A stretch of DNA of 32,000 nt from Opitutia bacterium KCR 482. Its GTDB lineage: Bacteria > Verrucomicrobiota > Verrucomicrobiia > Opitutales > Intestinicryptomonadaceae. Location of the stretch: assembly GCA_029269845.2 (NCBI GenBank), contig CP149973.1:1170001-1202000 (forward strand), in the 5' to 3' direction. Every line of letters starts with the position of its first letter. Within the stretch, counting starts at the first letter, position 1. This document shows positions 2,496 to 28,300 of the stretch, one piece after another. Position numbers and translations under genes: made by a program. Under the pieces are notes generated by a model, which made no database searches, was not told the origin of the DNA, and was given only the letters and a program-made list of their open reading frames with translations.

Positions 2496-3245
2496 ATGAA
2501 CTGCCTGATTTTCCCAACCCCGCCCCCGTTCAAGCTTGCGCCCGACAGCCCCAAGCTCGAGCATGTCGAAAAAGTCCTAAAAGCCGCCGACGGCGGCACG
2601 GTCTTTGCGGGTCAGGCAAACGGCGGACTTTTTGTATGCAAATTCGAAAAGCTCGCCGACGGCGGCGCGACGCTCACGCCCATTTCCGACGCCCCGAATC
2701 CCGCCCCGCTCGCGGCGTCCGTCGCCGTCGCATTCGCCCGCCCGCAGATTGCCCAGCGCATGCTCTTCGAAGCCGCGTGTTTCGGTGTAGAAAATCTGCT
2801 ATTCTACGCCGCGTCGAAAGGCGAGGCAGACTACGCAAAAAGCGGGCTCTACGCGCGCGGCGAATACGCCAAATGGCTCGAAAAAGGCGCGGAGCAGGCG
2901 TGCGCGACTTCCATTCCCTCGTTCTCCACCGCGTCGAGCCTCACCGAAGCCGTCGAAATGCTCGACGCCCTCGCCCCGCGCGATTCCCTGAAAATCGCTC
3001 CCGACCTATACGAGGCAACTGCCGCTCTCCACGACGTTTTGGATAAATCTCCCGACCTCCACGTCAAGGGTATCCTCGGCAGCGAGCGCGGCTTCTCCAA
3101 CCCCGACCGCAACCTCCTCCGCCTCAACAACTACACCCTCGTCTCCCTCGGCAACCGCGTCCTCCGCACCGACACTGCCCTAATCGCCACCCTCAGCAGG
3201 GCAGGCTGCAGCCTGCACGGCACGGAACTTCGTTCCTTTCTGTGA
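2496..3245 (+). CDS. Hypothetical protein (249 aa)
   Basis: Long ORF with the GC3-rich codon usage of the neighbouring genes. I recognise no motif. The last ~15 codons are encoded by repeat copy A. Confidence 0.6.
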   Translation: MNCLIFPTPPPFKLAPDSPKLEHVEKVLKAADGGTVFAGQANGGLFVCKFEKLADGGATLTPISDAPNPAPLAASVAVAFARPQIAQRMLFEAACFGVENLLFYAASKGEADYAKSGLYARGEYAKWLEKGAEQACATSIPSFSTASSLTEAVEMLDALAPRDSLKIAPDLYEATAALHDVLDKSPDLHVKGILGSERGFSNPDRNLLRLNNYTLVSLGNRVLRTDTALIATLSRAGCSLHGTELRSFL

Positions 3246-3596
3246 TAATACGGCGCGGCTATAACCGCGCCTTTTCCCGATTAGTCCGTATTGCCTGCGG
3301 CAATTACTGGCGTTGGGATATGTGATATTGGGAAAGAAACAAATTAGAATAGACGCGCTTTGCGCGGAGAGAAAAAAAGCGGAAATCCGCAAAACATGGA
3401 ATTTCCGCTTTTTTGTAAACTTAACTTTTATCCCAGCGCAACTTAAAAATCTTCCGCGCCGTGCGCTGTAATTTTAGGGGCGTCAAAATGCCCCTATAAG
3501 AGTGGCTTTCCTGTATTCGCAGGGCGCGTGGCGTACTTTCGTACGCGAGCGGTCTGCGAATACAGGGAAACGCTGTTAGAGGGGCGTTTTCACGCC
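3201..3596. repeat. Copy A of a ~396-nt hairpin-dense repeat (candidate large structured ncRNA or structured MITE-like element)
   Basis: Collinear with 17851-18247. It has many stem-loops, several with compensatory differences between the copies, and no credible ORF. Confidence 0.7.
3372..3414. terminator. Intrinsic terminator hairpin inside repeat copy A (bidirectional in this copy)
   Basis: A7, then GCGGAAATCC/GGAATTTCCGC (10 bp with one bulge), then T6. Confidence 0.55.
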
Positions 3597-4768
3597 CCTA
3601 CCGAGGAGGCGATTTCATCACTTAGTGTGTGAGTGAAGTATTGCATTACCACTGCGTGCGACAACCTGCCCCAATGTTCGTCGTCGGAGCACGCAAGCGC
3701 GTATTTGTGCACAACTTCGTCCGCGGGTCTTTGGAATATAACCGTGTTGGAATACGGATTTTTCCACGCCTTCACGCCGCGTTTAAGCAGGGCGCGGTAG
3801 AAATATTCGGCGTTTTCGAGGACGGCGTTCGCCTGTTTGCGCATGCCCTCCCTGCCCGCGACGGATATGCGCCAGTAGAGTTTGAGGGCGTCGAAACCGC
3901 TTCTGGAACACGAAATTGTGGGAATCACCCCGTTAAGGTAGGGCACGGGGTTGTTTTGCACGTGCGACAAAATCTCCCTGCGGCAGACGAAAATTCCCGC
4001 GGGCTCGTTCAGCCCGTAGAACTTGTGCCCCGAAACGGCGATTGAGTCGAAGCCCATTACGCTTGCGTCGAGGATTTCGCGGGCTTTGGGGTCGTCGAGG
4101 AAAGGCAGATAGCCGCCAAAGAGCGCGGCGTCTAGGTGCTTGTAGACGAAGGGCGGATTGACTTTTTTGACGACCTCGTCGATTGCGCGCTGGTCGTCGA
4201 TAGCCCCCTTGAAAGTGCCGCCGATTGCGATTGCGATGAGCGCGGGACGGTCGGGCGCAAGCTTTTTTTCGAGATCGGAGACGTCCATTTCGCCCGACTC
4301 GTGGGCGCGGATTGTGCGCGTTTCGATGTCGAGAATGTCGCCGAGTTTCTTGACCGAATAGTGGGCCTCGTCCGAAACGTAGAGGACGGGCGGAATGTCC
4401 GACTTCGCCGCGAGCGCGGTTCTGCCGAAATAGACGCCGTGCATGTTGCCGTCGGTGCCGCCGTTTGAAATCACGCCCCAGTGGTCGCCGCCGAAGCCGA
4501 AGGAGTCGGCGACAAAGTCGATGCACGCGCGTTCGAACTCGTCGGTGTGGAGCATGTCCCACTGCGTTTTGTAGGGGTCGCCGACGTTGATGAGGGTGAG
4601 GTCGCACAGCCCCGTATCGACGAGCCACTGGTAGAAGCCCGCGAGGCTCGTTTCCTGGTCGAACGGATAGCCAAGCTGCTCGAACTTGCGCGCGCGCAGG
4701 TTTGCGGCAAGCGCATCGAGTTTCTTCATTGCTTCGGCATTCGGTTTTTTGAATCTTTCCATGGACAT
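3590..4768 (-). CDS. PLP-dependent group II decarboxylase, histidine decarboxylase-like
   Basis: SGHKF PLP-lysine motif, GGTDGNMHG, HYSVKK, and HLDAALFGGYLPF. The length (392 aa) and motif order match Gram-negative PLP histidine decarboxylases. Confidence 0.8.
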   Translation of the reverse strand: MSMERFKKPNAEAMKKLDALAANLRARKFEQLGYPFDQETSLAGFYQWLVDTGLCDLTLINVGDPYKTQWDMLHTDEFERACIDFVADSFGFGGDHWGVISNGGTDGNMHGVYFGRTALAAKSDIPPVLYVSDEAHYSVKKLGDILDIETRTIRAHESGEMDVSDLEKKLAPDRPALIAIAIGGTFKGAIDDQRAIDEVVKKVNPPFVYKHLDAALFGGYLPFLDDPKAREILDASVMGFDSIAVSGHKFYGLNEPAGIFVCRREILSHVQNNPVPYLNGVIPTISCSRSGFDALKLYWRISVAGREGMRKQANAVLENAEYFYRALLKRGVKAWKNPYSNTVIFQRPADEVVHKYALACSDDEHWGRLSHAVVMQYFTHTLSDEIASSVGA

Positions 4769-6234: not shown

Positions 6235-7815
6235 CTATTTTTTCAGGGGTTTGAAAGACTTCGGCGCAATGCCAAGCTGCGCTATTTTGTAGTTTAAAAT
6301 GCGGCGCGAAACCGAAAGCTGTCGGGCTGCGGCGGAGGCGTTGCCGCCGTTTGCCGCAAGGACTTCCACGATGATTTCGCGCTCGAATTCGGCAACCATC
6401 TTGGCGAAGTCTATGTTCTCCTCCGTTTTCAGTTTGGAGGTATTTGTGGACTGCGGCGTTTGGAGCGACGGCGGCAAGTCGGACTCGGTAATCGACTGCC
6501 CCGCCGCGATTATCACCGCGCGTTCTATACAGTTTTCAAGCTCGCGCACGTTGCTCGGCCAGTGGTACGCGCAGAGCATGTTCATTGCGCCCGCGCTGAT
6601 TGAAATCACTTTTTTGCCGCGCAGACGCGCGTGTTTTTGGAGGAAGAATTTTGCGAGCGCGGGAATGTCGCGGCGGCGGCGGCGCAGGGGGGGAATCGAG
6701 ATTGTGAAAATCGAAAGCTGGTAGTAGAAGTCGGGGCGGATTATGCCGTCGCGCATGCGCCCCTCCAAGTCGCCCGAAGTGGAGGCGATTATCCGCGCGG
6801 AGGATTTCAGCGTCTCCGTTCCGCCGGAACGCACATATTCGCCCGACGCCAGATATTTCAGAAGCTTTATTTGAAGCGGCTTGCCGATAAGCCCTATCGA
6901 GTCGAGGTAGACAATGCCGCCGTCCGCCTTTTCGAGAAGCCCCGTGCGGCGGGGGCTGTCCGCGCCGAAAAGCTCGGCGTCTATGAGCGAGTCGCGCATG
7001 GTGGAGCAGTCGAGAATTTCAAGCGGCTTGTCCTTCCAGCGCGGGCGGTTTGCGATTGCCCGCATGGCGAAATCCTTGCCCGCGCCGACCTCCCCGCGCA
7101 CGAGAACGTGCGAATTCCCCTCGCCCGCCTTCGCGATAAGCTCGTATGTTTTAATCATCGCGGCGGTGTTGCCTATCGCGTTTTCGGGGCGCAGTTGGAG
7201 GTCGATTTTGTTGCGCAGCTCGCGGTTTTCGGAGTTGAGCTTTTCGGTCTCCTCGCGCTCCAAGAAAAGGACGGTCACGGCGTCGGAAATGATGTTGGCG
7301 ATTGTTTCGAGAAGTTTGAGGTCGCGCCGCAGGACGTATTTTGTGGGGTCGGTTCTGTCTATGCTGAGAGTTCCGATGACGTTGCCCCTGCTGAAAATGG
7401 GCACGCAAAGGAAGGCGGTTTTGGACGACATCGTGCGGCTCAGCGTGCGGTTGAGGAAGTCGGGGCTTTTGGAAATGTCGGGCACCACGCGCGAGACTCC
7501 CCGCGCGGCGACGTCGCCCGTAACGCCCTCGCCCATGCGGTAAACGCCGCGCTTGCGCTCTTCGTCGCTAAGCCCGTGCGAAGCGCAGATTGTGAGCAAA
7601 TCGCCGTTGCGCAGGGTTACCGTGCCGCGCGTGAGGTTCATGCGGTCGAAGAGAATGTCGAGCACTTCGCGCAGAAGCAGCGAGACGTCCTTCATGCGGA
7701 CGGCGGTCTTGCTGATGTCGTGCAAAACCGACACGACAAGCCCGCGCGCGCGGCGGTTTGCCGCGTTTTTGGAGCGGGGCGCAAGCCCGTCTTTTGTGTC
7801 CTTTGTATCCGACAT
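6235..7815 (-). CDS. GAF-domain / AAA+ / Fis-type HTH transcriptional regulator (bEBP family, GAFTGA loop missing)
   Basis: N-terminal GAF-like region, Walker A GEVGAGKD, Walker B GGIVYLDSIG, the R-finger region, and a C-terminal HTH AAARQLSVSRRILNYKIAQLGI. Confidence 0.85.
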   Translation of the reverse strand: MSDTKDTKDGLAPRSKNAANRRARGLVVSVLHDISKTAVRMKDVSLLLREVLDILFDRMNLTRGTVTLRNGDLLTICASHGLSDEERKRGVYRMGEGVTGDVAARGVSRVVPDISKSPDFLNRTLSRTMSSKTAFLCVPIFSRGNVIGTLSIDRTDPTKYVLRRDLKLLETIANIISDAVTVLFLEREETEKLNSENRELRNKIDLQLRPENAIGNTAAMIKTYELIAKAGEGNSHVLVRGEVGAGKDFAMRAIANRPRWKDKPLEILDCSTMRDSLIDAELFGADSPRRTGLLEKADGGIVYLDSIGLIGKPLQIKLLKYLASGEYVRSGGTETLKSSARIIASTSGDLEGRMRDGIIRPDFYYQLSIFTISIPPLRRRRRDIPALAKFFLQKHARLRGKKVISISAGAMNMLCAYHWPSNVRELENCIERAVIIAAGQSITESDLPPSLQTPQSTNTSKLKTEENIDFAKMVAEFEREIIVEVLAANGGNASAAARQLSVSRRILNYKIAQLGIAPKSFKPLKK

Positions 7816-7882
7816 ATTTTCGCATTTTCAAAAAAACGAAGATACTTGCAAAGAAAAAAACATTCTGTTTTAGTTTGGGACG

Positions 7883-8920: not shown

Positions 8921-9033
8921 GCCCGCCGCGCCCAAAATTCCGACGCGCAGACGCGCAGAATACCCGTTTGCGCAAAACATACCCGTTTTTTAGTTTGGAC
9001 AAAATCGGGACAAAATGCGATAATCTTCAATCT

Positions 9034-11079
9034 ATGAAGAAGAAATACGCTTTGTTGGGGAAGATTTTCGCCGCCGCCGCATTCGTTCTCGCGCTGGCCG
9101 GCTGCGAAGAAAGAGGAATCACAATTTACGACGCGTCAAACTCTCCCGACGGCAAGCCGTTCGAGCTTACGCGCAAAACGCCGCTGGTAGTCAACGGCGA
9201 ATGGGACTTGTCGAAAAACCTCGACTTCCTCGTGGAGTTCGAAAGCGTCGGCGAATCCGGCGACGTTGTGAGAATCAGAATCAACGACGGCACGGCGACG
9301 GAGCGCGACGGAAACCCGTCGGTCGCCTCCTACCGCGTCGCCAAGGGCGAAAAAGGCTCGGCGGTAATCTCCTACCCGCCCGTACCCGCGCACCCAGAAA
9401 TTCTCGACGACATGAAAATCATGCGCACAAACCCGTTCTTCCGCGGCGACAGAATTTCGTTCCCGAAAGACTTTTCAAAAATCAAAAGGCTCACAATGTT
9501 CTCGCGCAACGCCGGCGCGAAAATCAGGATAAAGAAAATCGTAGCCCTCGACACTTCGGCGAAAAAATACCCCGAATACTTTTCGTACACAAGGGAGCAG
9601 TTCTTTCCGTTCATCGACAAATACGGACAGTTCAAATTCGGCGACTGGAAAGGGAAAATCCGCACCGACGCCGACATCAAAAAGGCGGTCGCCGAAGAAG
9701 AGAAAGACCTCTCCGCAAACCCGCAGTCGCCCGAAGGCTGGACAAAATACGGCGGCTGGGCGAACGGCCCGAAGTTGGAGGCAACGGGGCACTTCCGCGT
9801 GCAAAAAGTGGACGGCAAATGGTGGCTCGTAGACCCCGAAGGCAGGCTGTTCTGGTCGCACGGCATAGTCAGGGTCTCTCCGTCGAGCGCAATCACGCCC
9901 CTCGACGGACGCGAATACTACTTCGAAAACCTCCCCAAGAAGGACGACGAATTCGCCCTCTTCTACACGACAAAAGACGAGCTTCTCGCGCCCTACTACA
10001 CCAAGCGCGGACTGAAAAAAACCTACGACTTCTCCGCCGCAAACATCTACCGCAAATACGGCAAACAGTGGCGCGAAAAATTCGCCGACTCCGCACACCG
10101 CAGACTCCGCAGCTGGGGGCTTAACACGATAGCGAACTCGTCCGACTCTTTCATATTCCTTCAAAAAAAGACTCCCTACGCCGAACGCTTCGAAATCCAT
10201 TCGCGCCCGATTTCAGGACACGAAGGCTGGTGGTGGCCGATTGCCGACCCGTGGGACGCGTCGTTCGTCAAAAGCATAAACGACAACCTCGACCGCCGCG
10301 CCGAACAGCTCGAAGACCCGTTCTGCATAGGCTATTTCGTGGACAACGAGCACCACTGGGGCAGCCCAGATACGATTGGCAGAAATGTATCGATTTCGCC
10401 CGCCGACCTGCCCGCAAAAATCGAGTTCGCAAAAGACCTCAAAGCCAAATACGGCGACATCGCCGCGCTCAACAAGGCATGGAAGACAAACTTCAAATCG
10501 TGGGACGACTTCCTCGCCAACGACAAAAACCCCGTAAACGCCGACAAAAAAGACCTCTCCGCGTTCTCCGAAAAATTCATCGGCAATTATTTCAAAACCA
10601 TTCGCGACACAATCAAGGCGCGCGTGCCGCACATGCTCTACATGGGCTGCCGCTTTGCGGGGTCGAACGAAATCGCGCTGCGGCAGGCGGGCAAATACTG
10701 CGACATCGTAAGCTACAACCGCTATTCAGACTCTCTCGCAACGCTCAAGCTTCCCGAAGGCGTGGACAAGCCAATCATGATTGGCGAATTCCATTTCGGC
10801 GCGCTCGACAGGGGGCTTTTCCACCCGTCGCTGGTGCTGGTGAAAGACCAGAAAGACCGAGGACAGCACTACTACGACTACGTCAAATCGGCACTTGAAA
10901 ACCCCGCAATAGTGGGCACACACTGGCACCAGTTCTCCGACCAGTGCACGGCGGGACGCTTCGACGGCGAAAACTTCCAAGTGGGCTTCACCGACGTCGC
11001 CGACCAGCCCTACCCCGAAACGATAAACAAAGCGCGCGAAATAGGCTATAAACTCTATAAAACGCGCTACGGGAAATAA
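9034..11079 (+). CDS. Exported (lipoprotein) TIM-barrel glycoside hydrolase with an N-terminal beta-sandwich domain (clan GH-A-like; family not assignable by eye, agarase/GH50- or GH42-like)
   Basis: Lipobox LALAGC after the internal ATG at 9034. Candidate catalytic motifs are FVDNEHHWG and MIGEFHFG. It is a paralog of 20405..22594. Confidence 0.8.
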   Translation: MKKKYALLGKIFAAAAFVLALAGCEERGITIYDASNSPDGKPFELTRKTPLVVNGEWDLSKNLDFLVEFESVGESGDVVRIRINDGTATERDGNPSVASYRVAKGEKGSAVISYPPVPAHPEILDDMKIMRTNPFFRGDRISFPKDFSKIKRLTMFSRNAGAKIRIKKIVALDTSAKKYPEYFSYTREQFFPFIDKYGQFKFGDWKGKIRTDADIKKAVAEEEKDLSANPQSPEGWTKYGGWANGPKLEATGHFRVQKVDGKWWLVDPEGRLFWSHGIVRVSPSSAITPLDGREYYFENLPKKDDEFALFYTTKDELLAPYYTKRGLKKTYDFSAANIYRKYGKQWREKFADSAHRRLRSWGLNTIANSSDSFIFLQKKTPYAERFEIHSRPISGHEGWWWPIADPWDASFVKSINDNLDRRAEQLEDPFCIGYFVDNEHHWGSPDTIGRNVSISPADLPAKIEFAKDLKAKYGDIAALNKAWKTNFKSWDDFLANDKNPVNADKKDLSAFSEKFIGNYFKTIRDTIKARVPHMLYMGCRFAGSNEIALRQAGKYCDIVSYNRYSDSLATLKLPEGVDKPIMIGEFHFGALDRGLFHPSLVLVKDQKDRGQHYYDYVKSALENPAIVGTHWHQFSDQCTAGRFDGENFQVGFTDVADQPYPETINKAREIGYKLYKTRYGK

Positions 11080-11101
11080 ATCAAACACATCGCAACCACA
11101 A

Positions 11102-11131
11102 ACGGCGGATATCTTCTCCGCCGTTTTTTTT
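11102..11131 (+). terminator. Rho-independent terminator after the first GH gene
   Basis: ACGGCGGA-TATCTTC-TCCGCCGT followed by a T8 run. Confidence 0.7.
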
Positions 11132-11148: not shown

Positions 11149-11967
11149 TCAGTTCGGCGTTTCGGGAATGAATCGCAGAGTGCGCAGGTTGCCGATTTTC
11201 CTTTTGTTTTCGAGCGCGTCGCCGAGCGGCGAGGTTTGGCTTTCGAAAGTCTCTTCGCCGCCGCCGTAAACTTCGTACGATACTTTTCCCTCCGCGCCCC
11301 AACGCCCGTTTATCAAACCGCCTTTAAGCTCGGCGACGTTTGCGCCAAGCACTTCGCAGACTTTTTCGGCGCGGGGGTCGATTATGTATTTTTCATACTC
11401 CGACTCAAAGTATACCGCGCCGTTCCGCAACGCGTAGACGGAGAAATTTCCGCGCCCGCAAGTGTCGAGAGAAATTCCGACGGTTTTGCCGCTTTCAAAT
11501 TTCACGCGCCTGTCGAATTCGGGACAAAGCGCGGGCTTTCTTTTAAGCTGCAATTCGAATTTCGGCTCGGCGGGAATTTCGACTGATTCCCACATCGTAA
11601 ACAATGCCCACAGCGACACCGCAAACACCGCAGCCGCAACCGCCGCCGAAATAAGAACCCCCGCCGCAAAAGACAACAACGTTTTGAAAAAAGAGAATCC
11701 GCACTTGCGCGCGTAAAACATATGGGCAAGAAAGCCCGCACAAAACACAGGCAAAATTCCCGCAATAATCGGCGTAAGAAAGTTCGGAATTGGAGGAATG
11801 ACGCGCCACGCGCCCACCACGGAAAACGGCGCAATAAGCCCCATCGCCGCACATACGGCGGGCACACTTTTGAGCGTGGCGGCAATAAAACCCGTGCCGC
11901 GGCGAAAGAAAATCCACGCGGCGGCGGAAATCCCCATAAGCGCGCAAGCTGCAATTAATGCCGACAT
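11149..11967 (-). CDS. Membrane protein (about 4 N-terminal TM helices plus a soluble C-terminal domain), hypothetical
   Basis: 272-aa ORF with a hydrophobic N-terminal half and normal codon usage. Confidence 0.65.
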   Translation of the reverse strand: MSALIAACALMGISAAAWIFFRRGTGFIAATLKSVPAVCAAMGLIAPFSVVGAWRVIPPIPNFLTPIIAGILPVFCAGFLAHMFYARKCGFSFFKTLLSFAAGVLISAAVAAAVFAVSLWALFTMWESVEIPAEPKFELQLKRKPALCPEFDRRVKFESGKTVGISLDTCGRGNFSVYALRNGAVYFESEYEKYIIDPRAEKVCEVLGANVAELKGGLINGRWGAEGKVSYEVYGGGEETFESQTSPLGDALENKRKIGNLRTLRFIPETPN

Positions 11968-11980
11968 CGCAGAATTTCTA

Positions 11981-12327
11981 CCCTACCCCACCCGTCGGGT
12001 CAAGAAATACCGCCAACAATCATCGAGCAAAAGCAACGCAGGCATAACGAGACAAACGACGTACGCGTGTAAATATTCCCTCCTACACGAAAATGAAGCA
12101 CGACAAATAAAATGCCGCCCCAGCCACACAAACGCAGGACAAACAACATAAGCGTACTACCTACCCTACGAATAGGAATGCGACAAAGCAGAATTCCCCC
12201 AACCGAGCAAGGACAAACAACAACGCAAGCGCGGCAATTTCCGCCGCAAAACATAAACGAATCGGCATAAGCTATCGCCCCTCCCAACGCGAAAGCGCAA
12301 CAAGCGAAATACGCGCCCGCCCCACCC
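11981..12327. other. Strongly strand-asymmetric tract, A+C-rich on the plus strand and G+T-rich on the minus strand
   Basis: My counts: 12001-12060 is A28 C17 G11 T4, and 12181-12240 is A24 C19 G12 T5. The tract is bounded by the near-repeats CCCTACCCCACCC (11981-11993) and CCCGCCCCACCC (12316-12327). Confidence 0.6.
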
Positions 12328-12354
12328 ACGCGAGAGCGAAGCGACTCGCGCCTC

Positions 12355-12390
12355 GACGGAAACGAAATGCTCCTCGTTTTCGTTTCCGTC
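12355..12390. other. Perfect 13-bp hairpin
   Basis: GACGGAAACGAAA, a 10-nt loop, then TTTCGTTTCCGTC. Confidence 0.6.
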
Positions 12391-12397
12391 CTCCTTC

Positions 12398-12424
12398 GTG
12401 CGCATTAAGCGCACTCTGTTTTTC
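12398..12424 (+). terminator. Candidate plus-strand terminator, the first of three ATTAA-loop hairpins
   Basis: GTGCGC-ATTAA-GCGCAC followed by TCTGTTTTTC. Confidence 0.4.
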
Positions 12425-12512
12425 ATCTACTCATAGGAATGTGGTGAGCTACAAATGCAAAAAAATCCGACGCAACCGCAGCACCCCACAAAAAATATCA
12501 CCATGTAATATT

Positions 12513-12564
12513 AAAAAAACGCGATATTTCGGACAGCGTGAAAGTCCCAAATATCGCGTTTTTT
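12513..12564. terminator. Long bidirectional intrinsic terminator
   Basis: A7, then CGCGATATTT-C-GGAC-AGCGTGAAA-GTCC-C-AAATATCGCG, then T6. Confidence 0.7.
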
Positions 12565-12617
12565 CGCTAAACCTCCCGCGCGGCGGCTGCCGCGCTGTCG
12601 AGGCTTGCGAGGTTGCA

Positions 12618-12905
12618 CGCAGAAATGCGGCTTTGCAAAGCAAGGCGACGGGAGTGTACTCTCGTACATGACCGAAGCCGCGCGAGCGAAACGCATTTAT
12701 ACGCCGACCCCGCAAGCCCTCCTAAATCTCCTTGCACGCATTAAGCGTGCCATCACTATCCCGCAGAAATGCGGCTTTGCAAAGCAAGGCGACGGAAGAG
12801 TACTCTCGTACATGACCGAATCCGCGCAAGCGAAACGCATTTATACGCCGACCCCGCAAGCCCTCCTAAATCTTCTTGCACGCATTAAGCGTGCCAACAC
12901 TACCC
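12618..12905. repeat. Tandem repeat, 2 x 144 nt, structured units
   Basis: Units 12618-12761 and 12762-12905 differ at about 7 positions. The array abuts the stop codon of the lipoprotein gene at 12907. Confidence 0.9.
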
Positions 12906-12906
12906 C

Positions 12907-13902
12907 CTACTTTTCGGAGAATCCGTCCGGCAGGAACCATCGCGCCTTGTAGATTCTGCCGCCGTCAAGCGTCCCGACCCTGCGCGTTTTCGACGCGCCG
13001 AACGACACCGATGCGCTCCACCATTTGACTTCGGGTATGAGCGAAATTATTTCGCCGTCGGGCGACGAAAGCGACACGCTTTTTATCCGCCCCACCCCGC
13101 ACACGTCGGCGAATTTGCGCGAGACGGAATCGAAAAGCACAACGCCCTTATGCCCCGTAATAAACATGATTTTCGACGACGGCAACGGGTACAAATCGTG
13201 CCCGACTACCGCTTTTTCGGGCAGCGGATATTCGGCGGTTTTTTCGAGTTCGGGCGAATCGGAGTCGAAGTTGTATTTGTAGGCTTCGAGAGTCTTTTTG
13301 CCAAGCGCCCACAAAATTTTCTGCGAAGCGTCCCACACCACGCCGTGCGCAAATTCGAGCGGATACGTTTTTTTCGACGCGCACGGAACGCCCTCCGCCG
13401 CGTTTTTTGCCGCAAAAACCGTCAGCATGTTGCCGTCGGACGACGCAACCGCGATATTTCCGTCGGGAAGCAGGCATGCAGAATGCACGTTCCCGCCGGC
13501 GTACATAAAGCGAACAACGCGCGAATCGCGCACGCGCACGAGCGCAACGCCCCCTTTCGACGCCGCGACTAAAACGTGGGTCGCGCCGAGCACCGGCTTT
13601 GCGTCGCTGGGATTGCCGAACCATTCGGCGTATTTCACGGGCATTCCGTCCGCCTTCAAGGGGTTCCAGCTCCACAAAACGGCGTCGGGAGAATTCCAGT
13701 CTTTCGAGGAGTCCAAAAGCAGAATTCGGCGCGATGCCTGTTCGGAGGCGAGCACTGCGGGAAGATTTTTTACGTCCACCGCCGAAGCGTCCGACATCTT
13801 CGCCGAAACGAACACTGCGGTTTCCTCCAACGAACGCTCGCCGACGCACGCCGAAAGCAGCGATACCGACGCCGAGGCAAGAAGCAGCGCAATCAGTTTC
13901 AT
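12907..13902 (-). CDS. Lipoprotein (331 aa), probably beta-rich or propeller-like, hypothetical
   Basis: Internal ATG at 13902 gives MKLIALLLASASVSLLSAC with a canonical LSAC lipobox. This ATG overlaps the upstream gene's TGA (ATGA). The track ORF extension to 14580 is an Arg-rich out-of-frame overlap. Confidence 0.75.
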   Translation of the reverse strand: MKLIALLLASASVSLLSACVGERSLEETAVFVSAKMSDASAVDVKNLPAVLASEQASRRILLLDSSKDWNSPDAVLWSWNPLKADGMPVKYAEWFGNPSDAKPVLGATHVLVAASKGGVALVRVRDSRVVRFMYAGGNVHSACLLPDGNIAVASSDGNMLTVFAAKNAAEGVPCASKKTYPLEFAHGVVWDASQKILWALGKKTLEAYKYNFDSDSPELEKTAEYPLPEKAVVGHDLYPLPSSKIMFITGHKGVVLFDSVSRKFADVCGVGRIKSVSLSSPDGEIISLIPEVKWWSASVSFGASKTRRVGTLDGGRIYKARWFLPDGFSEK

Positions 13903-17850: not shown

Positions 17851-18247
17851 GCAGGCTGCAGCCTGCACGGCGTCGGAACTTCGTTCCTTTCTGTGATAAT
17901 GCGGCGCGGGTATACCCGCGCCTTTCCCCGTTTAGTCCGTATTGGCTTCGCCAATTACTGGCGTTGGGATTATTTTATGTTGGGAAGAAACGAATTAAAA
18001 TAGACGCGCTTTGCGCGGATAAATAAAAAACGGAAAACCTAAAACAAAGGTTCTCCGCTAACTCATTAACTAAACTTTTATCCCAGTGCACCCTAAAAAA
18101 CTTCGTGCGCCAGCACTCACTTATTAGGCGCGTCAAAATGCTTTCATAAGGGTGGCTTTCCTGTGCACGCAGGGCGCGTGGCGTACTTGACGTACGCGAG
18201 CGGTCTGCGGGTACAGGGAAACGCCCTTAGGGAAGTATTTTCACGCG
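17851..18247. repeat. Copy B of the ~396-nt hairpin-dense repeat
   Basis: Collinear with 3201-3596 in the same orientation. The flanking sequences are unrelated. Confidence 0.7.
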
Positions 18248-18264
18248 CCGTCTCGCGCCGTATC

Positions 18265-20404: not shown

Positions 20405-22594
20405 ATGAGAAAGAAACTGCCGACACTCGCGGCGGCGTTGCTCTTCGCCGCCCTGCCCGCGCTGGGCAACATGGAAACGGTTTTCGAGGAAGACTTCGAA
20501 AATCCCGAAACGAGCAAATTCGCGGAAGTCGCAAAATTCGAGCCTGAAATCGCCACGGAAGTCGCGGGCAGCAAGGCGATATCGGGCAACGGCTCGATGA
20601 TGTTCGACACGCGCGGAAAAAACTGGGGCTGGCAATCTATATGCACCATTCCGCTGAACAAGGAGGGAATTTACAGACTCTCGCTAACATGCAAACTGCT
20701 CGAAACCGAAAATAACAAACACGTGGCAGTCGCAGTCGCCATGCGCGAAATCAAGAACGGGGAAAAGACGCGCATCTCCGCCCGCTGGATTCAGAAAGAC
20801 AACAAAAAGGACCATAAAAAAGCGCAGAGAATAGAAGTCGCCGGCAGGCTTCCGTCAAATTCGGGCGAATTCGACATCGTCGCCGAGCGCGGAATTAAAA
20901 TCGAAATCGACGACATCAAAATCGAAAAATTCACCGCCGACCCCAAGGGCGCGTGGATGTTCGACAACGACGCGTTCATCGGCATGACATTCACGCCCGC
21001 CAACCCCGAATTCCACAACTTCAAGGAGAAATTCCTGAACTACTCGAAGGAGGAGTTCTTCCCGTTCATCGACAAGTACGGACAATTCAAACACAAAGAC
21101 TGGATTGACAAAATCACCTGCGACGAAGACTTCGCAAAACGCATGGAGGCGGAAAAGAAGTTCTACAAGAAAATCGGAAAAATCCCCAACCGCGACCAGT
21201 TCTGCGGGCTCGTTCGGGAAGACCAAAAATACGAAGCTACGGGGCACTTCCGCGTGCAGAAAATCGACGGCAAATGGTGGTTTATCGACCCCGAGGGCAA
21301 CCTGTTCTGGTCGTTCGGCATAACCTGCGTCGGCAACCTCGACCTCACGCCGATTACCGACCGCGAATCGTACTTCGAAGACGTCTCCGACAAACGCTTC
21401 ATGAAAAAATCGAACTGGGGACTGCACTACTATAAAGACAAAGTTTACGACTCCTACGGATTCCTCGAACGCAACCTCGTGGCGAAATACGGCGACAATT
21501 ACAGGGAAGTTTACGGAGACGTCTCCGACGAGCGCATGCGCATGTGGGGCTTCACAACCTACGGGTGCTGGTCGCAACACTACATCATAAGCAGGGGCAA
21601 CTTCCCGTTCACGGCGATTGCGACGTCGGGCAAGGCGGAAAGCTTCAAGACCGACGTAAAAATACACGCATATTGGCGCGACTTCCCCGACTTCTTTACG
21701 CCCAATTTCGAGGAAAACACCTTCAAACGCGTAGCGCAGCTTTCCAAACTCATAAACATGCCCGCATGCGTCGGCGTGTTCGTGGACAACGAACTTCCGT
21801 GGCAGTTCAAGCCGCTGACGACAATCAGGGCGCTGCTCGGCTGCCCCGCGACACAGTATTCGAAAATCGAATTCCGCAAGGATTTGGAGGCTAAATACGG
21901 CACAATCGAAAAACTCAACGAAGCGTGGAACGCAAAATACGCAAGCTGGGACGACTTCCTCGCCAAGCGCGACTTCTTCCCGAGAACAAAGGCGGGCGAA
22001 ACCGACATGCTCGCATTCGAGGAGAAAATCTACGTCCGCTACTTCAAGACCTGCCGCGACGCAGTAAAGGCGGCGGCTCCGAATACGCTGTATCTCGGCT
22101 GCCGCTTCGCGTGGAGAAATACGCTTGTAGAGAAGGTCGCCTCGCGCTACTGCGACGTCATCAGCTACAATGTATACTCCGACAACATTACAGCATTCTC
22201 GCCCGTGAAGGGCTGCGAAGACAAACCGTCGCTCATCGGCGAATTCCACTTCGGGAACACCGACAAGGGCGTGTACGGCGGCGGGCTCAATCCGCGCGTG
22301 ACGGTCGAAGCCCGCAAAAAGGCGTTCGAAAACTACGCAATCAGCGCATTCGAAAACCCGAATGTCGTGGGAGCGCACTGGTTCCAATGGTTCGACCTTT
22401 GCACGGCGGGACGCTTCAACGCAGCAAACTACGCAATCGGCTTCGTGGACATCTGCGACACGCCCGACTACGTGATAGTGAAAGCCGCCCGCAAGCTCTC
22501 GCAAAAGATGTATAAACTAAGACTCAAAGGCGGACAAAGCACAACCCAGAGCGTGGAATCGACAAAAGCCGTCATCGACCTCGACGAAAAATAA
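20405..22594 (+). CDS. Exported TIM-barrel glycoside hydrolase, paralog of 9034..11079
   Basis: Signal peptide MRKKLPTLAAALLFAALPALG. Shared blocks include FFPFIDKYGQFK, ATGHFRVQK(I/V)DGKWW, FVDNE, IGEFHFG and CTAGRF. Confidence 0.85.
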   Translation: MRKKLPTLAAALLFAALPALGNMETVFEEDFENPETSKFAEVAKFEPEIATEVAGSKAISGNGSMMFDTRGKNWGWQSICTIPLNKEGIYRLSLTCKLLETENNKHVAVAVAMREIKNGEKTRISARWIQKDNKKDHKKAQRIEVAGRLPSNSGEFDIVAERGIKIEIDDIKIEKFTADPKGAWMFDNDAFIGMTFTPANPEFHNFKEKFLNYSKEEFFPFIDKYGQFKHKDWIDKITCDEDFAKRMEAEKKFYKKIGKIPNRDQFCGLVREDQKYEATGHFRVQKIDGKWWFIDPEGNLFWSFGITCVGNLDLTPITDRESYFEDVSDKRFMKKSNWGLHYYKDKVYDSYGFLERNLVAKYGDNYREVYGDVSDERMRMWGFTTYGCWSQHYIISRGNFPFTAIATSGKAESFKTDVKIHAYWRDFPDFFTPNFEENTFKRVAQLSKLINMPACVGVFVDNELPWQFKPLTTIRALLGCPATQYSKIEFRKDLEAKYGTIEKLNEAWNAKYASWDDFLAKRDFFPRTKAGETDMLAFEEKIYVRYFKTCRDAVKAAAPNTLYLGCRFAWRNTLVEKVASRYCDVISYNVYSDNITAFSPVKGCEDKPSLIGEFHFGNTDKGVYGGGLNPRVTVEARKKAFENYAISAFENPNVVGAHWFQWFDLCTAGRFNAANYAIGFVDICDTPDYVIVKAARKLSQKMYKLRLKGGQSTTQSVESTKAVIDLDEK

Positions 22595-24149: not shown

Positions 24150-25361
24150 CTATCGCGAAATCAGCCACTCGATGCGCGAGACGAAATCCTCGCAGTCGGG
24201 TTGGTTGTCGTTGCCGAGCGTCAGCGTCCGCGTGCCCGTCGCAAGGTCTATCGACTCCGACTGCACCTGCGCGTCGATTCCCGCGAGGTTGTCGCGGCTG
24301 TCCGCAATATTCAGGCGTTTACCCGCGTAGCGCATCCGCAGGTTGCGGTCGAAGAGCACAACGCTGCCCGTGTATTTGTCGCGGTTGACAATCGACTTCA
24401 ACTGCGCGAGCAGCCCCTGCGCGTCGACCGTTTTATTCGAAAAATTGTCGTCGGAAATGTCTATCGAAACGACCACCACGTTGCGCTGATTCGCCGAAAC
24501 TCCCTCGGCGGCGCAGTCGTCGAAGCCTTTGTAGTGCAGCCACGAACCCGTGCCGCCCGTCGTATTGCCCGTCTTGTTTTTGACGAGTCGCAGAATCACG
24601 CGCCGTTTGCGCTTGATGTCCTTTGTAAGAGAAATGTCGGTGCATATGCCGACGGGCACGCTCACGACTGCGCACTTTTGCGCCGCCTTAATCGAGAGCG
24701 TCGGCTTGTCGGCCGAGTAGTCGAAGGCGGACATCAGTTCGGGGTGCCACTTTGCGATGCTCGAAAAAATATCGGCGAACATTGGCGACTCCTTTTCCTC
24801 GTACGGAAGGAGGAGCTGCGAGTCGAAGTCGATGCCCGATTCGGGAATGTCGAAGAGCGCGGCGTTGTCGGTTTTAGCGAACGCCGCCAACACGTCATTT
24901 TTGAAGAACTGCTCCGCCGACCAGCTTTCATACTGCGGTTCCTCGTACTGCACCGGTCCGCCCGTGGAGCTCCACCAGTACTCGGTTTTTTTCCCGAAAA
25001 GCTGGACTTTCGTGAGGTCGCGGACGTTCGGAATGTTGCCGATTAGAATCGGCGGGAACCACGAATTTTGGTACGGAGTGGATTCGAACACGTCCCAGAA
25101 GCCTTTTGCGGAGAAGTTCACGGAGTCGCCGTTTGCCGATTTGCCGACGGTCGGCTCTTGGAGAAAGCCCGCGAAAATCCGCGCGTCGCCGTCGAAGACC
25201 TCGACGCGTGTTTCCGCGTCGCGCCAAGCGTTGCGGAAGCCGAGCTTGGGCGTGGAGAACGAAAATTCGTCCGCCGCGAAGCTGTTGAACGTGAGCATTG
25301 CCGACTCGCAGCCCCATTGGGGGAGAGTCCGTTTTTCGCCGCCTATTTTAAGAGTCGTCAT
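24150..25361 (-). CDS. Phage tail protein downstream of the tape measure gene (distal-tail or hub/gpD-like)
   Basis: The start overlaps the tape measure stop (ATGA at 25358-25361). The N-terminal region pattern and the gene's position fit a Dit/hub protein. The family call is positional. Confidence 0.6.
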   Translation of the reverse strand: MTTLKIGGEKRTLPQWGCESAMLTFNSFAADEFSFSTPKLGFRNAWRDAETRVEVFDGDARIFAGFLQEPTVGKSANGDSVNFSAKGFWDVFESTPYQNSWFPPILIGNIPNVRDLTKVQLFGKKTEYWWSSTGGPVQYEEPQYESWSAEQFFKNDVLAAFAKTDNAALFDIPESGIDFDSQLLLPYEEKESPMFADIFSSIAKWHPELMSAFDYSADKPTLSIKAAQKCAVVSVPVGICTDISLTKDIKRKRRVILRLVKNKTGNTTGGTGSWLHYKGFDDCAAEGVSANQRNVVVVSIDISDDNFSNKTVDAQGLLAQLKSIVNRDKYTGSVVLFDRNLRMRYAGKRLNIADSRDNLAGIDAQVQSESIDLATGTRTLTLGNDNQPDCEDFVSRIEWLISR

Positions 25362-28300
25362 TTTTTTGAGAGTCGCGAGACCGAGCCTTTAATGTTTCTT
25401 TCGAGGTCGATTATTTTCTTTACGAGGGTATCGATTTGCTTTGCGATTTCGGAGAGCGAGCTTACCGCCTCGTCGATTCCGCCGCCCGCGCCCTTTTCGG
25501 AATCTCCCGATTTGCCCGACGCTTTTACCGATTGTGTTTTCTGGGGCGCGGATTTGGGTGCGCGGCTTTCCTCCAGCCGTTCCGAAAAGGATTTTGCCGA
25601 GCGCGGGGCTGGAATACCGCCGGTGGAGAATTCGTCCGCAGCGCCCGCCGTCCTTTCGGACAGGCGCTCCGAATACGACTTTGCCACACGCGGCGCGGGA
25701 ACGCCGCCCGTCGAAAACCTTCCCACCGTTTCAGAGACCGCTCCGACCGCCGCGGAAACCGCGCTTCCGCCCGCGCCCGCAACTGCCCGCGCGGTGTCCG
25801 ACGGCGTTTTGATTGCCCCCGCCCTTGCGGCGACTCCGTACGCCCTTTGCGAGGTTTCCGCGTCGGACTGCGCGACGGCCTCCTTGCTCGTAGGGTTTAC
25901 GAACTTCCCCGTTTTGCGGTCGATGCCCTTGTATTCGCGCACGTCGTCGTTGATTGAAATTCCGTAGCGTTTTTCGAAGCGCTCGGCCATTTTTACGCCG
26001 CGGCTGATGTCGGCGCGGGAGTCCGAGCCGAGCAGCTCTTTGATTTTGTTTTGCTGCCGCTCCATCTGCCCGACGCTCGCGCCGTAGCGGGCGTTTTTGT
26101 TTGCGGTTGCGGGCTTCTGCTTCTTTTGAATGTCGTCGATTTTCTTAATGTCGGCGAGCGCCTCCGAATACGAAGTTTTGAAGCGTTCTGCGTATTCGGT
26201 GGCGCGTTTGCGGATTGAAAGCGCTTCCGCTTCGACCTTTTTTCCCGACGCTTTGAGCGCGGAAATCTGCGCCTCCACAACGAGCATATTGCGCTCGCGG
26301 GCGAGCTTGTCGGCCTCGATTTTCGCCTCCGCTTCGACCTTCGCCGTAGCGATTTCCCGCGCGTCGGCGTCGGAGAGGTTGGCGCTTTCTTTGAGGTTCA
26401 GAATCTCGCGTTCGATGTCGAGCCTGCGCTGCGTCTTTGCCGCCGCCGCATTGTCGCCGCGAGCCTGCGCCTGCAAAATTTCGAGCGAAAGCCGCGCGGT
26501 TTCCGCCGCCGCGCGTTTCTTTTCCTCGTTCGCGGCCTTCGGTTCCAGCCGCGCGATTTCCCCGCGCAAAGCCGCCGTCTCTCGGAGCTTTTCGCCGAGC
26601 ATATCGTAGGCTTTCGCGCGGTCGGCAAAACTTTTCGAAGTGTTGCCCGCGTCGCTTTCGAGCCTTGCGATTTCCTCCTCGACGGCGCGGAGGTCGCGTT
26701 CCCTCTCGATTTTCCGTTCGGTATCGGAAAGGGCTTCGAGCGCGACCGCGCGTTTGATTTGGTTTGTGCGTCGCGCGGCGGTTTCGAACGCCTTGCGGTC
26801 GGCGGCCTCCCTTGCGAGCGCTTCCGCCGACGTGCGCGATTCAAGCTCCGCCTCCTTGCGGGCAAGCACCGTCCGCACCGACATCATCGCCGTGTTTAGC
26901 GACTGAATCTTCCTGAAGAGAGCCGTCCGTGATTCGTACTCGGCAAGCTCGCCCTCGCCGTACTGCGCCCCTTTTGCGAAGTTCGCGTCGCCGCCGCGCC
27001 TGCGGTTGCGCTCGCGGACCTGCTCGCGCTTGTCCGCGCGGTCGAGCATCTGCGCGTGTCTTTCGTATTCCGTCTTGACCTGCTCGAAATAGTTCCGCAG
27101 GCGGCCGACGCTTTCGGTCGTCGCGTCTTCGGCGGCGAAAGTGCGCATATCGGCGTTGACCTGTGCAACGCCGCTTTGGACGGCGCGGAGGGCGGGCGGA
27201 AGCTGCTCGTACGCCGAGCGCGCGCGTCCCGCAGCCTCCGCGCTCGAAATGAACTTGTCGGCAAGGTATCCGAGACCGACGGCAAGGGCGCCGATGCCCG
27301 TCATCGCCAACGCGCCGCGAAACGCCCGCAACGCGATTGTCGCCGCGGTAGCCGCGCCCGCGTTTGCGGTGAACGCCACGGATAGCGCCCGCAGACCCGC
27401 CGCCGTGGAAACGAATACGCGCGACATCGTGCCGAAAACCGCCACAAGGCGCGTCGCCGCGAAAATCGCCGGACCGATTGCAGCAACGGCAAGCCCGACC
27501 GACGCGGCGAATCTCTTTGTTTTGTCGTCGGAGGCGTTGAACGCGCTTACGAGGTCGTATGCCTGCATCACGACTTCGCGCAGCGCCTTTCCGAGCGACG
27601 AACTTTCAACCGCAATCTGCGCCTCTTCGACCGCCGACTTGATTTGGAAGAACGCTCCGCGCAGGTTGTCCTCCTGCTGTTTTGCGATTCGCTCCGTCGT
27701 GCCCGCCGAGTCTTTGAGCGCGTCGGAAAAGCGTTTGAGGCTGTCGCCGCCCATATCGGTGAGCGCGGCGACGGCGGCGGCCGCGCGGTCTCCGAAAATC
27801 CTGAAAATCTGCTCCGTGGAAATGCCTGCATCACCGAGGTCGCTTATGATGTCGAGAATCGGGCGCATTTTGCCCGACGCGTCCTTCGTATCGACGCCGA
27901 GTTCCGCAAGCACTTTCTGCGCGTCGCGCGACGGTTTGACGAGCGAGGAAATCGCCTTGCGCAGCGCCGTGCCCGCCATCGTGCCCTGCAAGCCCGCGTT
28001 GCCGAGGGCGCCGACTGCCGCCGTGATGTCTTCGATACTCTGCCCCGACGACCTCGCGACGGGCGCGACGTATTTCATCGCGTCGCCGAGTTGGCGCAAG
28101 TCGGTGTTCGAACTCGTGAACGCCTTTACGAGAACGTCGTTTGCGTGGGCGAGTTCGCCAACGTCAAGCCCGAAGCCGCGCAGGATGTTCGACGTGATGT
28201 TTGCGGCGGTGCCCATATCGAGCGTGGCGGCTGCGGCAAGCTGCAACACCGACGGCATAGAGCGCGTCATTTCCGACACCGAAAAGCCCGACATCGCAAG

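Follow-up and report, generated by a model that had tools for sequence, protein, structure and literature searches.

A modular, low-copy intergenic repeat with a predicted terminator probably fills a structured gap in a human-gut Opitutia genome

Introduction

In the genome of Opitutia bacterium KCR 482, two minus-strand genes are separated by a gap of some 940 nucleotides (nt) that lacks a credible gene and is crowded with helices and repeats, and the question it raises is what kind of sequence this is. The gap lies in a 32,000-nt stretch of contig CP149973.1 (positions 1,170,001 to 1,202,000), which is the whole of the DNA analysed and is called the window below. A first-pass annotation, made from the letters of the window, had suggested that the gap might hold one or more non-coding RNA (ncRNA) genes. 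With moderate confidence, based on comparisons of the sequence with strains and related loci, we read the gap instead as one copy of a new, low-copy, modular, non-coding intergenic repeat of uncultured human-gut Opitutia, built around a terminator.

Modular intergenic repeats are well known from a handful of cultured model species but have scarcely been investigated in the uncultured Verrucomicrobiota of the gut. At this locus, a few hundred bases of repeated, non-coding DNA vary more than any other part of a stretch that is otherwise 99.8-100% identical, and variation of this kind bears on strain typing, on the assembly of metagenomes and on how differences in expression between strains are read.

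A Repeated Element at Several Loci

The components of the gap are collected in Table 1. The 13-bp hairpin, GTGCGC hairpin, terminator, GC hairpin and tandem 2 x 144-nt repeat that the first-pass annotation had picked out are all present, with the tandem repeat spanning 12618-12905 or 12906 and its two copies being 95% identical. Other copies of the element were located through open reading frame (ORF) calls that lie over the 144-nt unit, and the segment 12316-12906 was found to recur at other loci of related gut Opitutia, sometimes tandemly duplicated or partly inverted. On one 82.7-kb contig (L015), the element is flanked by a plus-strand alpha-amylase-family gene and a minus-strand guaA. There, another A+C-skewed tract is followed by a complete two-unit module and then by a second complete module that has a single unit. 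These tandem modules hold both of the spacer haplotypes that are seen as "alleles" at the window locus. At another locus (L020), an aconitase-family gene is followed by an inverted unit and GC hairpin and then, in forward orientation, by a short tract, the module and two units, with the short tract being homologous to the proximal part of allele X of the window-locus tract (z 15). A further junction context is found in P0012.

At every junction examined, the outer edge of the element lies at the stop codon of whichever gene reads into the unit. At the DUF6528 gene of the window, AAGTAG is followed by GGGGTAGTG; at guaA, GAATAG is followed by GAGATAGTG, and the same junction occurs at the aconitase-family gene of L020. 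In two strain loci (L006 and L012), the junction with an aconitase-family gene reads TTGGGATAGTG, and the stop codon of that gene falls within the first bases of the unit. Positions 1-1150 of L019 were considered as a case of transfer between taxa and were not used. Here, the unit sits beside the guaA gene of another organism, of 48% GC and with about 60% DNA identity to the guaA of L015, only the last ~30 nt being identical; this short contig is probably a chimera joined within that conserved 3′ end.

Taken together, the copies form a small family of paralogous elements, and the "alleles" of the window locus are best explained by exchange among copies. Such exchange is suggested because L015 pairs both spacer haplotypes and the tract of L020 matches allele X.

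Table 1. Features of the gap and its flanking genes, in window coordinates
Feature	Position	Strand	Remarks
Intergenic gap	11968-12906		Between two minus-strand genes
Native upstream region of the 272-aa gene	11968-12011	minus	44 nt next to the start codon; probably outside the repeat
A+C-skewed hypervariable tract, allele W	12012-12315		
GC helix (CGCGAG/CTCGCG) enclosing a GCGAAGC mini-hairpin	12329-12350		Computed fold; intact "master" copy of the motif
Perfect 13-bp hairpin	12355-12390 (arms 12355-12367/12378-12390)		-19.4 kcal/mol; z -6.2 against shuffles
GTGCGC-ATTAA-GCGCAC 6-bp hairpin, then T-run	12398-12424	plus	Weak fit to the terminator pattern
A/C-rich variable spacer	12425-12512		Two haplotypes
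Long predicted terminator: A-run, inverted repeat with 21-nt arms, T-run	12514-12564	both	
7-bp GC hairpin GCGCGGC-GGCT-GCCGCGC	12578-12595		Pairs in 98.4% of cells
144-nt unit, copy 1	12618-12761	minus	Predicted 3′ untranslated region of the gene reading into the unit
144-nt unit, copy 2	12762-12905	minus	Abuts the DUF6528 stop codon; absent in most strains
Sigma-54 -24/-12-like motif TGGCACGCTTAATGC	12738-12752 and 12882-12896	minus	Formed by the unit hairpin; near-consensus
272-aa membrane-protein ORF	11149-11967	minus	Hydrophobic N-terminal segments; no family match
DUF6528 lipoprotein gene	12907-13902	minus	Stop codon 12907-12909; start at 13902

Variation among Strains

The closest genome is the metagenome-assembled genome Opitutia bacterium UBA4654 (L003), whose DUF6528 protein is 95% identical, and many human-gut metagenome contigs encode the downstream protein in exactly its 262-amino-acid (aa) form. 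Ten of them (L005-L014) were fetched as strain loci; L004, L016 and L026 are further strains, and three relatives (L027, L017 and L018) have flanking DNA that is ~93%, 88% and 86% identical, respectively. Among the strains compared with the window, the DNA of the 272-aa gene is 99.8-100% identical. Within the gap, identity to the window is either 99% or 38% in the A+C tract, 97-100% or 66-67% in the spacer at 12425-12512, 87-96% in the hairpin block at 12316-12424 and 89-98% in the terminator. The block types are combined differently in different strains, so that the gap is a mosaic.

The number of units also varies at this one site. Seven loci spanning it (L005, L006, L007, L008, L009, L010 and L011) have a single 144-nt unit, and two units are found in the window, L004, L012, L016 and L026. 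In L006 and L012, the aconitase-family gene replaces the DUF6528 gene upstream, and the breakpoint is the outer edge of the unit, at window position 12906. The element is present in L017; in L018, with its ~86% DNA identity, the sequence upstream of the orthologous gene is unrelated. Two independent short-read contigs (L002 and L003) both end some 63-65 nt into the unit, at about window position 12845, which is expected assembler behaviour because the unit is a repeat.

Comparative alignment of related genomes, which the first-pass annotation had proposed as a check, gives a divided answer: the stems are conserved and include three compensatory pairs, but the gap is far more polymorphic than its flanks. 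A conserved ncRNA locus is not what these comparisons point to, as the number, orientation and alleles of the modules vary in near-identical strains and the element is missing in L018. The more general suggestion of ncRNA gene(s) in the gap fares better in part, in that the DNA is non-coding and most of its helices are maintained; the region, however, is one copy of a repeated modular element found at other loci, and not a unique locus.

Conserved Hairpins and a Predicted Terminator

Conservation of the hairpins was measured over 55 stem pairs in five hairpins of nine distinct module copies. Stem cells are paired in 95.9% of cases, compared with 36-54% when the partners are slid by 1-3 columns. 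Three pairs in total show compensatory changes. One is in the GC helix, where the pair is A-U in two copies, G-C in six and broken in one, and the other two are adjacent in the 13-bp hairpin, where GA/TC changes to TG/CA in three of the nine copies; the same double change is found in L026. Strains of the L005 group have one arm of each type of this hairpin, with two mismatches, as if recombination had broken the hairpin at its loop. Most of the variation in the terminator, the GC hairpin and the ATTAA hairpins falls in loops; that of the GC hairpin, for instance, reads GGCT, GACC or GGTC. The 144-nt unit has a mean column identity of 95% over 17 distinct copies, with many of its variable sites in hairpin loops; no covariation was found within it, the copies being too similar (95% alike).

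The high density of structure reported for the gap in the first-pass annotation holds for 12500-12906, which folds far better than shuffled sequence on both strands (z -5.6 and -7.0), but it does not extend to the A+C tract, as described below. An "AT-rich stretch" that had been listed ahead of the terminator is only moderately AT-rich, with a GC content of 0.47 for 12400-12599. The sequence at 12514-12564 has, by its letters, the stable GC-containing stem-loop and directly following U-run of an intrinsic (Rho-independent) terminator, and its computed folding energy is -24.6 kcal/mol for the plus strand and -29.2 kcal/mol for the minus (z about -7). Its stem is kept among the copies, with changes falling in the loop, and the minus-strand tail of seven U (the A-run) is invariant in nine copies; the plus-strand T-run is down to 4-5 T in several copies. 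Because the minus-strand tail is invariant while the plus-strand run shrinks, the comparison points to minus-strand termination as the constrained function. This terminator, predicted to be bidirectional, would mainly end minus-strand transcripts coming from the upstream gene. The hairpin and T-run at 12398-12424 resemble a weak terminator for the plus strand; the stem does not vary among the copies, and the T-run occurs in the variants TCTGTTTTTC, TCTGATTTTC, TCTAATTTTC and TCTGACTTTC.

The A+C-Skewed Tract

The compositional skew that was noticed in the left part of the gap was borne out by measurement (A 0.37, C 0.34, G 0.18, T 0.11). Versions W, X and Y from the window locus and version Z from L015 all fall within A 0.35-0.38, C 0.31-0.34, G 0.16-0.19 and T 0.11-0.14, and a fifth version, V, from L017, is A+C-rich by inspection. 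The three versions at the window locus are very different from one another: W, X (38% identity to W) and Y, a shorter mosaic. The tract of L026 is W-type with a ~61-nt deletion and further deletions of tens of bases, while that of L027 is a diverged X-type. The versions are related in patches, with one block common to W and Y, another to X and Y, and a second motif common to W, Z and L020. Neither strand of the tract folds better than shuffled sequence (z -0.8 and +0.6), and this largest component of the gap has no conserved sequence either.

Two accounts of the tract were considered and rejected. General mutation bias as the cause of the skew is contradicted by the third codon positions of the neighbouring genes, which do not have it. 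Derivation of the whole gap from an array of decayed 144-nt units is contradicted by an nhmmer profile of the unit, which matches intact copies only, and by alignments of tract and unit, which are no better than with shuffles; only the GC-helix motif recurs significantly. In the tract, there are 5 hits of at least 5 bits to a decayed form of this motif (its 5′ half), against 0.01 in shuffles, and these copies are irregularly spaced, 36-136 nt apart. In L017, the copies are ~40 nt apart, and their scores fall steadily away from the intact copy. Measured against the intact motif, G>A changes are the most frequent (19), followed by C>A (8) and C>T (5), with others rare, a spectrum that is strand-asymmetric and drawn from a small sample. 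The tract may be read as the fast-turnover product of local duplication and decay of the GC-helix motif, and its strand-biased decay would be a small natural record of local mutation bias.

Coding Potential

The ORFs of the gap are 35-115 aa long, and searches of Pfam, NCBIfam and PHROG gave no match of note. Those in the tract are broken or different in allele X, and the start codon of an 86-aa ORF is GAG in L016. Over the 17 distinct unit copies, 30 variable sites are distributed 14/11/5 by phase, with the third positions of the long plus-strand ORF being the least variable. The C-terminus of this 115-aa ORF is the antisense of the neighbouring gene and differs by locus. When 1.84 billion proteins were searched with phmmer, the matches were the element's own ORF calls and DUF4116 repeat proteins (E 8e-13 to 4e-4), one of which aligned without gaps at 31% identity over 108 residues. 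Kinship with DUF4116 was rejected as an effect of repeat-against-repeat score inflation. The Pfam model (PF13475) did not match the 115-aa ORF or P0005 at E up to 10, while P0014 and P0016 scored 277 and 122 bits, and by our estimate a single 48-aa unit would not be significant in the phmmer database. Six-frame translations of the module, joined into one query for ORF calls over other copies, gave no match. The earlier judgement that the gap has no credible ORF is upheld by these results: there are no family matches and no codon-position pattern, and the ORFs followed are not kept between alleles.

Searches for Known RNA and Repeat Classes

The first-pass annotation had also remarked that no annotated feature explains the structure of the gap, and comparison with RNA families agrees: Rfam 15 gave no match in the whole window, and with permissive filters on 11800-13100 the best score was 18.8 bits against a gathering score of 100. 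A search for tRNA and tmRNA genes found none. The repeat search reported no regular array of short repeats in the window, and in the gap only the 2 x 144-nt duplication; there is no Cas family among the predicted window proteins that were scanned, so that a CRISPR array is not indicated. Scans of virus contigs for patterns gave no matches for two of them and 5 hits for an 18-nt pattern, with no similarity beyond the 18 bases. In the spacer, neither a consensus scan nor reading by eye revealed a convincing promoter. The element does have the fixed ends and variable tandem module of a BOX-like architecture, with one or two units at the same locus and two plus one at L015; this is a resemblance without evidence of homology. 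The window's outermost unit has a GTAG 4 nt ahead of the hairpin, and its place is taken by ATAG in the inner unit and at other loci.

A Proposed Mode of Action

A mechanism consistent with these observations can be outlined from the order of the parts. Along the minus strand, the upstream stop codon is followed by one or two units, the GC hairpin, the strong predicted terminator, the spacer, the three conserved hairpins and the A+C tract. The transcript of the upstream gene would run through the unit(s) and GC hairpin and end at 12564-12514, so that unit, GC hairpin and terminator would serve as its 3′ untranslated region (3′-UTR) and transcript end, and the structured 3′-UTR may protect the mRNA. 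Termination, 3′-end protection or both have likewise been proposed as roles of REP/BIME and BOX elements. The terminator would also insulate the next gene, whose own promoter appears to be in the conserved 44 nt at its start codon. Copies at different loci would recombine by gene conversion, unequal crossing-over and reciprocal exchange. Such recombination would make the gap more polymorphic than its flanks and the number of units variable, and would join a different upstream gene exactly at the unit edge. The A+C tract would be a by-product, generated by local duplication of the GC-helix motif and then decaying with a strand-biased G-to-A spectrum. If it is true that units and terminator tune 3′ ends, the element would offer a portable change of expression that leaves coding sequence untouched. 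A separate small RNA (sRNA), either derived from the 3′-UTR or independent, is possible in the part from unit to terminator.

Several points weigh against this reading. Very large collections of proteins and contigs yielded no more than some three to five junction contexts, a number well below that of the REP, BOX and ERIC families. Past the terminator, as read on the minus strand, come the three conserved hairpins and the tract, for which a 3′-UTR model has no role at this locus. Two G-U wobble positions, in the terminator stem and one of the unit hairpins, suit the plus strand better than the minus, which would be unexpected of a pure minus-strand 3′-UTR element. The common composition of the tract could reflect selection for a C-rich, G-poor, unstructured plus-strand RNA; RNA of this Rho-loading-like kind would make sense at L015 and L020 because a plus-strand gene reads straight into the tract there. 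The proposed spread of the element finds no support in the proteins of the window, among which there is no transposase, including Y1. Finally, no inverted repeat joins the ends of the gap and no duplicated flank was seen at the junctions, both of which a miniature inverted-repeat transposable element would have.

A bolder version of the mechanism can also be conceived, and it is distinctly improbable. Here, the element would be a self-propagating 3′-end cassette, copied through hairpin-guided, single-strand events to new gene ends with RARTAG at the stop codon, where it would bring a 3′-UTR, a bidirectional terminator and possibly a sigma-54-type start in each unit, from which a multi-copy sRNA would run to the terminator. 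Its other side would grow by polar duplication of the GC-helix motif, with older copies decaying G-to-A (C-to-T on the minus strand) into a strain-variable A+C trail.

Alternative Explanations

Genuine sRNA gene(s) are an unlikely but still sizeable alternative, in the form either of a minus-strand RNA of ~230-370 nt, running from the sigma-54-like motif to the strong terminator and present in several copies, or of a plus-strand RNA made of the tract, the three hairpins and the terminator at 12398-12424. The two minus-strand unit hairpins contain the only exact matches to TGGCAC-N5-WTGC in the 32-kb window, the strain variation of the hairpin falls in the unconstrained N4 spacer of the putative promoter, a sigma-54 activator gene lies 4 kb away at 6235-7815, and a strong terminator with a conserved U-tail stands downstream. 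High conservation of unit and hairpins, and the preference of one unit hairpin's wobble pairs for the plus strand, would also suit an RNA gene. The sigma-54-like match, however, is built from the palindrome, with which it coincides, and its variable positions are equally well explained as a loop; the third ATTAA hairpin is without the GG of the -24 element. The sequence that precedes the outermost unit differs with the locus (DUF6528, aconitase-family and guaA flanks), and no activator-binding site conserved between these loci was found in it, which leaves the motif as a candidate promoter and a lead only. For a plus-strand RNA, there is no conserved promoter on the left, since the flanks there change from locus to locus, and its tract is 38% identical between alleles. 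The lack of covariation within the unit and of an Rfam match, together with the absence of the element in L018, argues in the same direction. Another idea, which seems very unlikely, is that the gap is the regulatory 5′ leader and promoter region of the 272-aa gene, with a ~450-nt leader, structured and G/U-rich, that would be transcribed from the spacer. This accords with the position of the gap directly upstream of that gene, with a linkage that persists when the upstream neighbour changes (L006 and L012) and with a Shine-Dalgarno-like AAGGAGG and 5′ hairpins on the minus strand. But L015 has the same modules with a convergent gene on that side, so that there is no gene to lead, and L018 has the 272-aa gene without the element. 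Furthermore, the body of such a leader would be 38% identical between alleles of strains with identical genes and has no excess structure, the consensus scan found no promoter in the spacer, and a better-conserved candidate lies beside the start codon.

Mobility offers another, quite improbable, explanation. A non-autonomous element, either REP/REPIN-like or derived from the IS200/IS605 family, would be mobilised in single-stranded form by a Y1 (HUH) transposase whose gene lies elsewhere, and would insert beside short targets, such as RARTAG, where genes end. Three genes end in (G/A)A(A/G)TAG followed by G(A/G)(G/A)(A/G)TAGTG, with a 7-bp hairpin 4 nt later, a layout that recalls the GTAG and hairpin of REPs and the sub-terminal hairpins of IS200/IS605 as presented in the cited part of one source (PMC3333891). 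An inverted pair of units flanks the core in L020, and the hairpins have strand-specific G-T wobbles. The window has no transposase to go with this, however, ATAG is commoner than GTAG, and the unit-unit and module-unit junctions have no one common cut site, while the low apparent copy number and duplications that look like unequal recombination fit mobility poorly. In view of the evidence on coding given above, it is barely credible that the gap encodes a small protein or a type I toxin-antitoxin pair, or that it contains a pseudogene remnant. The candidates would be the 115-aa plus-strand ORF, with its two 48-aa repeats resembling DUF4116, and, on the minus strand, which is G+T-rich in the tract, ORFs with hydrophobic products. 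Some of the 35-115-aa ORFs are called in public assemblies, and the phmmer matches to DUF4116 extend down to E 8e-13. Yet that score is repeat-inflated and is not seconded by the Pfam model, third positions account for 5 of the 30 variable sites, the C-terminus changes with the locus, the tract ORFs are broken or different in allele X, the 86-aa ORF has GAG in place of its start codon in L016, and none of the ORFs has a family match.

Flanking Genes and the Rest of the Window

The 44 nt at 11968-12011 are probably the 272-aa gene's own upstream or promoter region and lie outside the repeat. They contain a sigma-70-like promoter candidate on the minus strand, with a -35 TTGACC (12003-11998), a 17-nt spacer and a -10 TAGAAA (11980-11975), and the ATG of the gene comes 7 nt past the TAGAAA, so the mRNA may be leaderless. 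This stretch is identical to the window in seven strain loci with the W allele and 91.5-93.6% identical, with a 3-nt insertion at its right edge, in four with the X allele. The orthologous stretch of L017 reads TTGACT-17 nt-TAAAAA-7 nt-ATG, and the region is partly recognisable in L018, which has the homologue of the 272-aa gene without the element. A string that starts the gap both here and in L015, CGCAGAAT, was considered as a common left terminus and rejected; the match is probably due to chance because in L017 and L018 that position is simply part of the region preceding the 272-aa gene. In L018, the sequence ahead of the homologue of this gene (positions 1-711) is G+T-rich by inspection in window orientation, which is apparently the opposite skew, and has long homopolymer runs (C7 T7 and G9). 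On the other side of the 272-aa gene, a plus-strand intrinsic terminator with a 10-bp stem and T-run is located at 11100-11126, between this gene and a convergent GH42-like gene.

A second, unrelated hairpin-rich repeat of ~380 nt, described in the first-pass annotation as a 396-nt element, occurs at 3223-3598 and 17874-18249. Its two copies share blocks that are 83-92% identical, fill two other gaps and overlap the ends of flanking ORFs, so the genome carries more than one family of gap-filling repeats. Elsewhere, two paralogous genes encoding 703 and 729 aa (8968-11079 and 20405-22594) have weak Glyco_hydro_42 matches and DNA blocks that are 70-82% identical; they sit amid five xylose-isomerase-like TIM-barrel genes in what looks like a duplicated sugar-utilisation cluster. 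The sigma-54-dependent activator encoded at 6235-7815 has GAF, AAA+ and HTH_8 domains, and no GG-N10-GC motif was seen on reading the 67-nt divergent intergenic region (7816-7882) of its gene. At 25358-28630, a 1090-aa protein with a phage minor-tail (tape-measure) domain (PF10145, E 1e-48) is followed by several small, unannotated minus-strand ORFs, and a prophage probably occupies this right-hand end of the window.

Comparison with Known Systems

The intergenic repeat proposed here recalls several known systems without coinciding with any of them. BOX elements of Streptococcus pneumoniae, as described in the cited part of one source (PMC3049150), are made of boxA, a variable number of boxB and boxC, are co-transcribed with neighbouring genes and have fortuitous ORFs on both strands. 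Like them, the Opitutia element is non-coding, modular and rich in hairpins, with a tandem sub-unit that varies in number (the 144-nt unit occurs once or twice, and the module is duplicated in L015). It differs in having no sequence relation and in belonging to another phylum; in its size of ~600-900 nt, compared with ~100-400 nt; in its predicted bidirectional terminator and skewed, decaying tract; and in its handful of loci, compared with about a hundred.

Another likeness is with the REP/BIME sequences of enterobacteria, which two sources describe as mosaics of palindromes that directly follow stop codons in the space separating tandem or convergent genes, with REP325 acting as a dual 3′-UTR terminator and stabiliser (bioRxiv 10.64898/2026.03.23.713779; PMC3333891). 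Both have palindromic units in direct or inverted orientation after stop codons, a location that varies among strains, and proposed roles in termination and protection of the upstream mRNA. REPs, however, are 20-40 nt long, occur in hundreds of copies and have a conserved GTAG and a RAYT transposase, whereas the Opitutia unit is a multi-hairpin sequence of 144 nt, mostly with ATAG and in low copy, and the window has no RAYT.

Low copy number is also a feature of the TRIP1 repeats of Escherichia coli, where, according to the cited part of one source (PMC10888264), recombination between copies rearranges the chromosome. TRIP1 occurs at specific loci, with number and direction varying among strains, and in the Opitutia element the counterpart is the different upstream gene that meets the unit edge in L006 and L012. 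The sequences are unrelated, and the likeness is one of distribution and rearrangement. Finally, the core at 12514-12564, with its A-run, stem of 21-nt arms and T-run, resembles a bidirectional terminator, but ordinary terminators of this kind are not embedded in ~900 nt of repeated, strain-variable modules that recur elsewhere. Set against these systems, the element is unusual for its large size, its embedded, predicted bidirectional terminator, its low copy number and its skewed, decaying, hypervariable tract.

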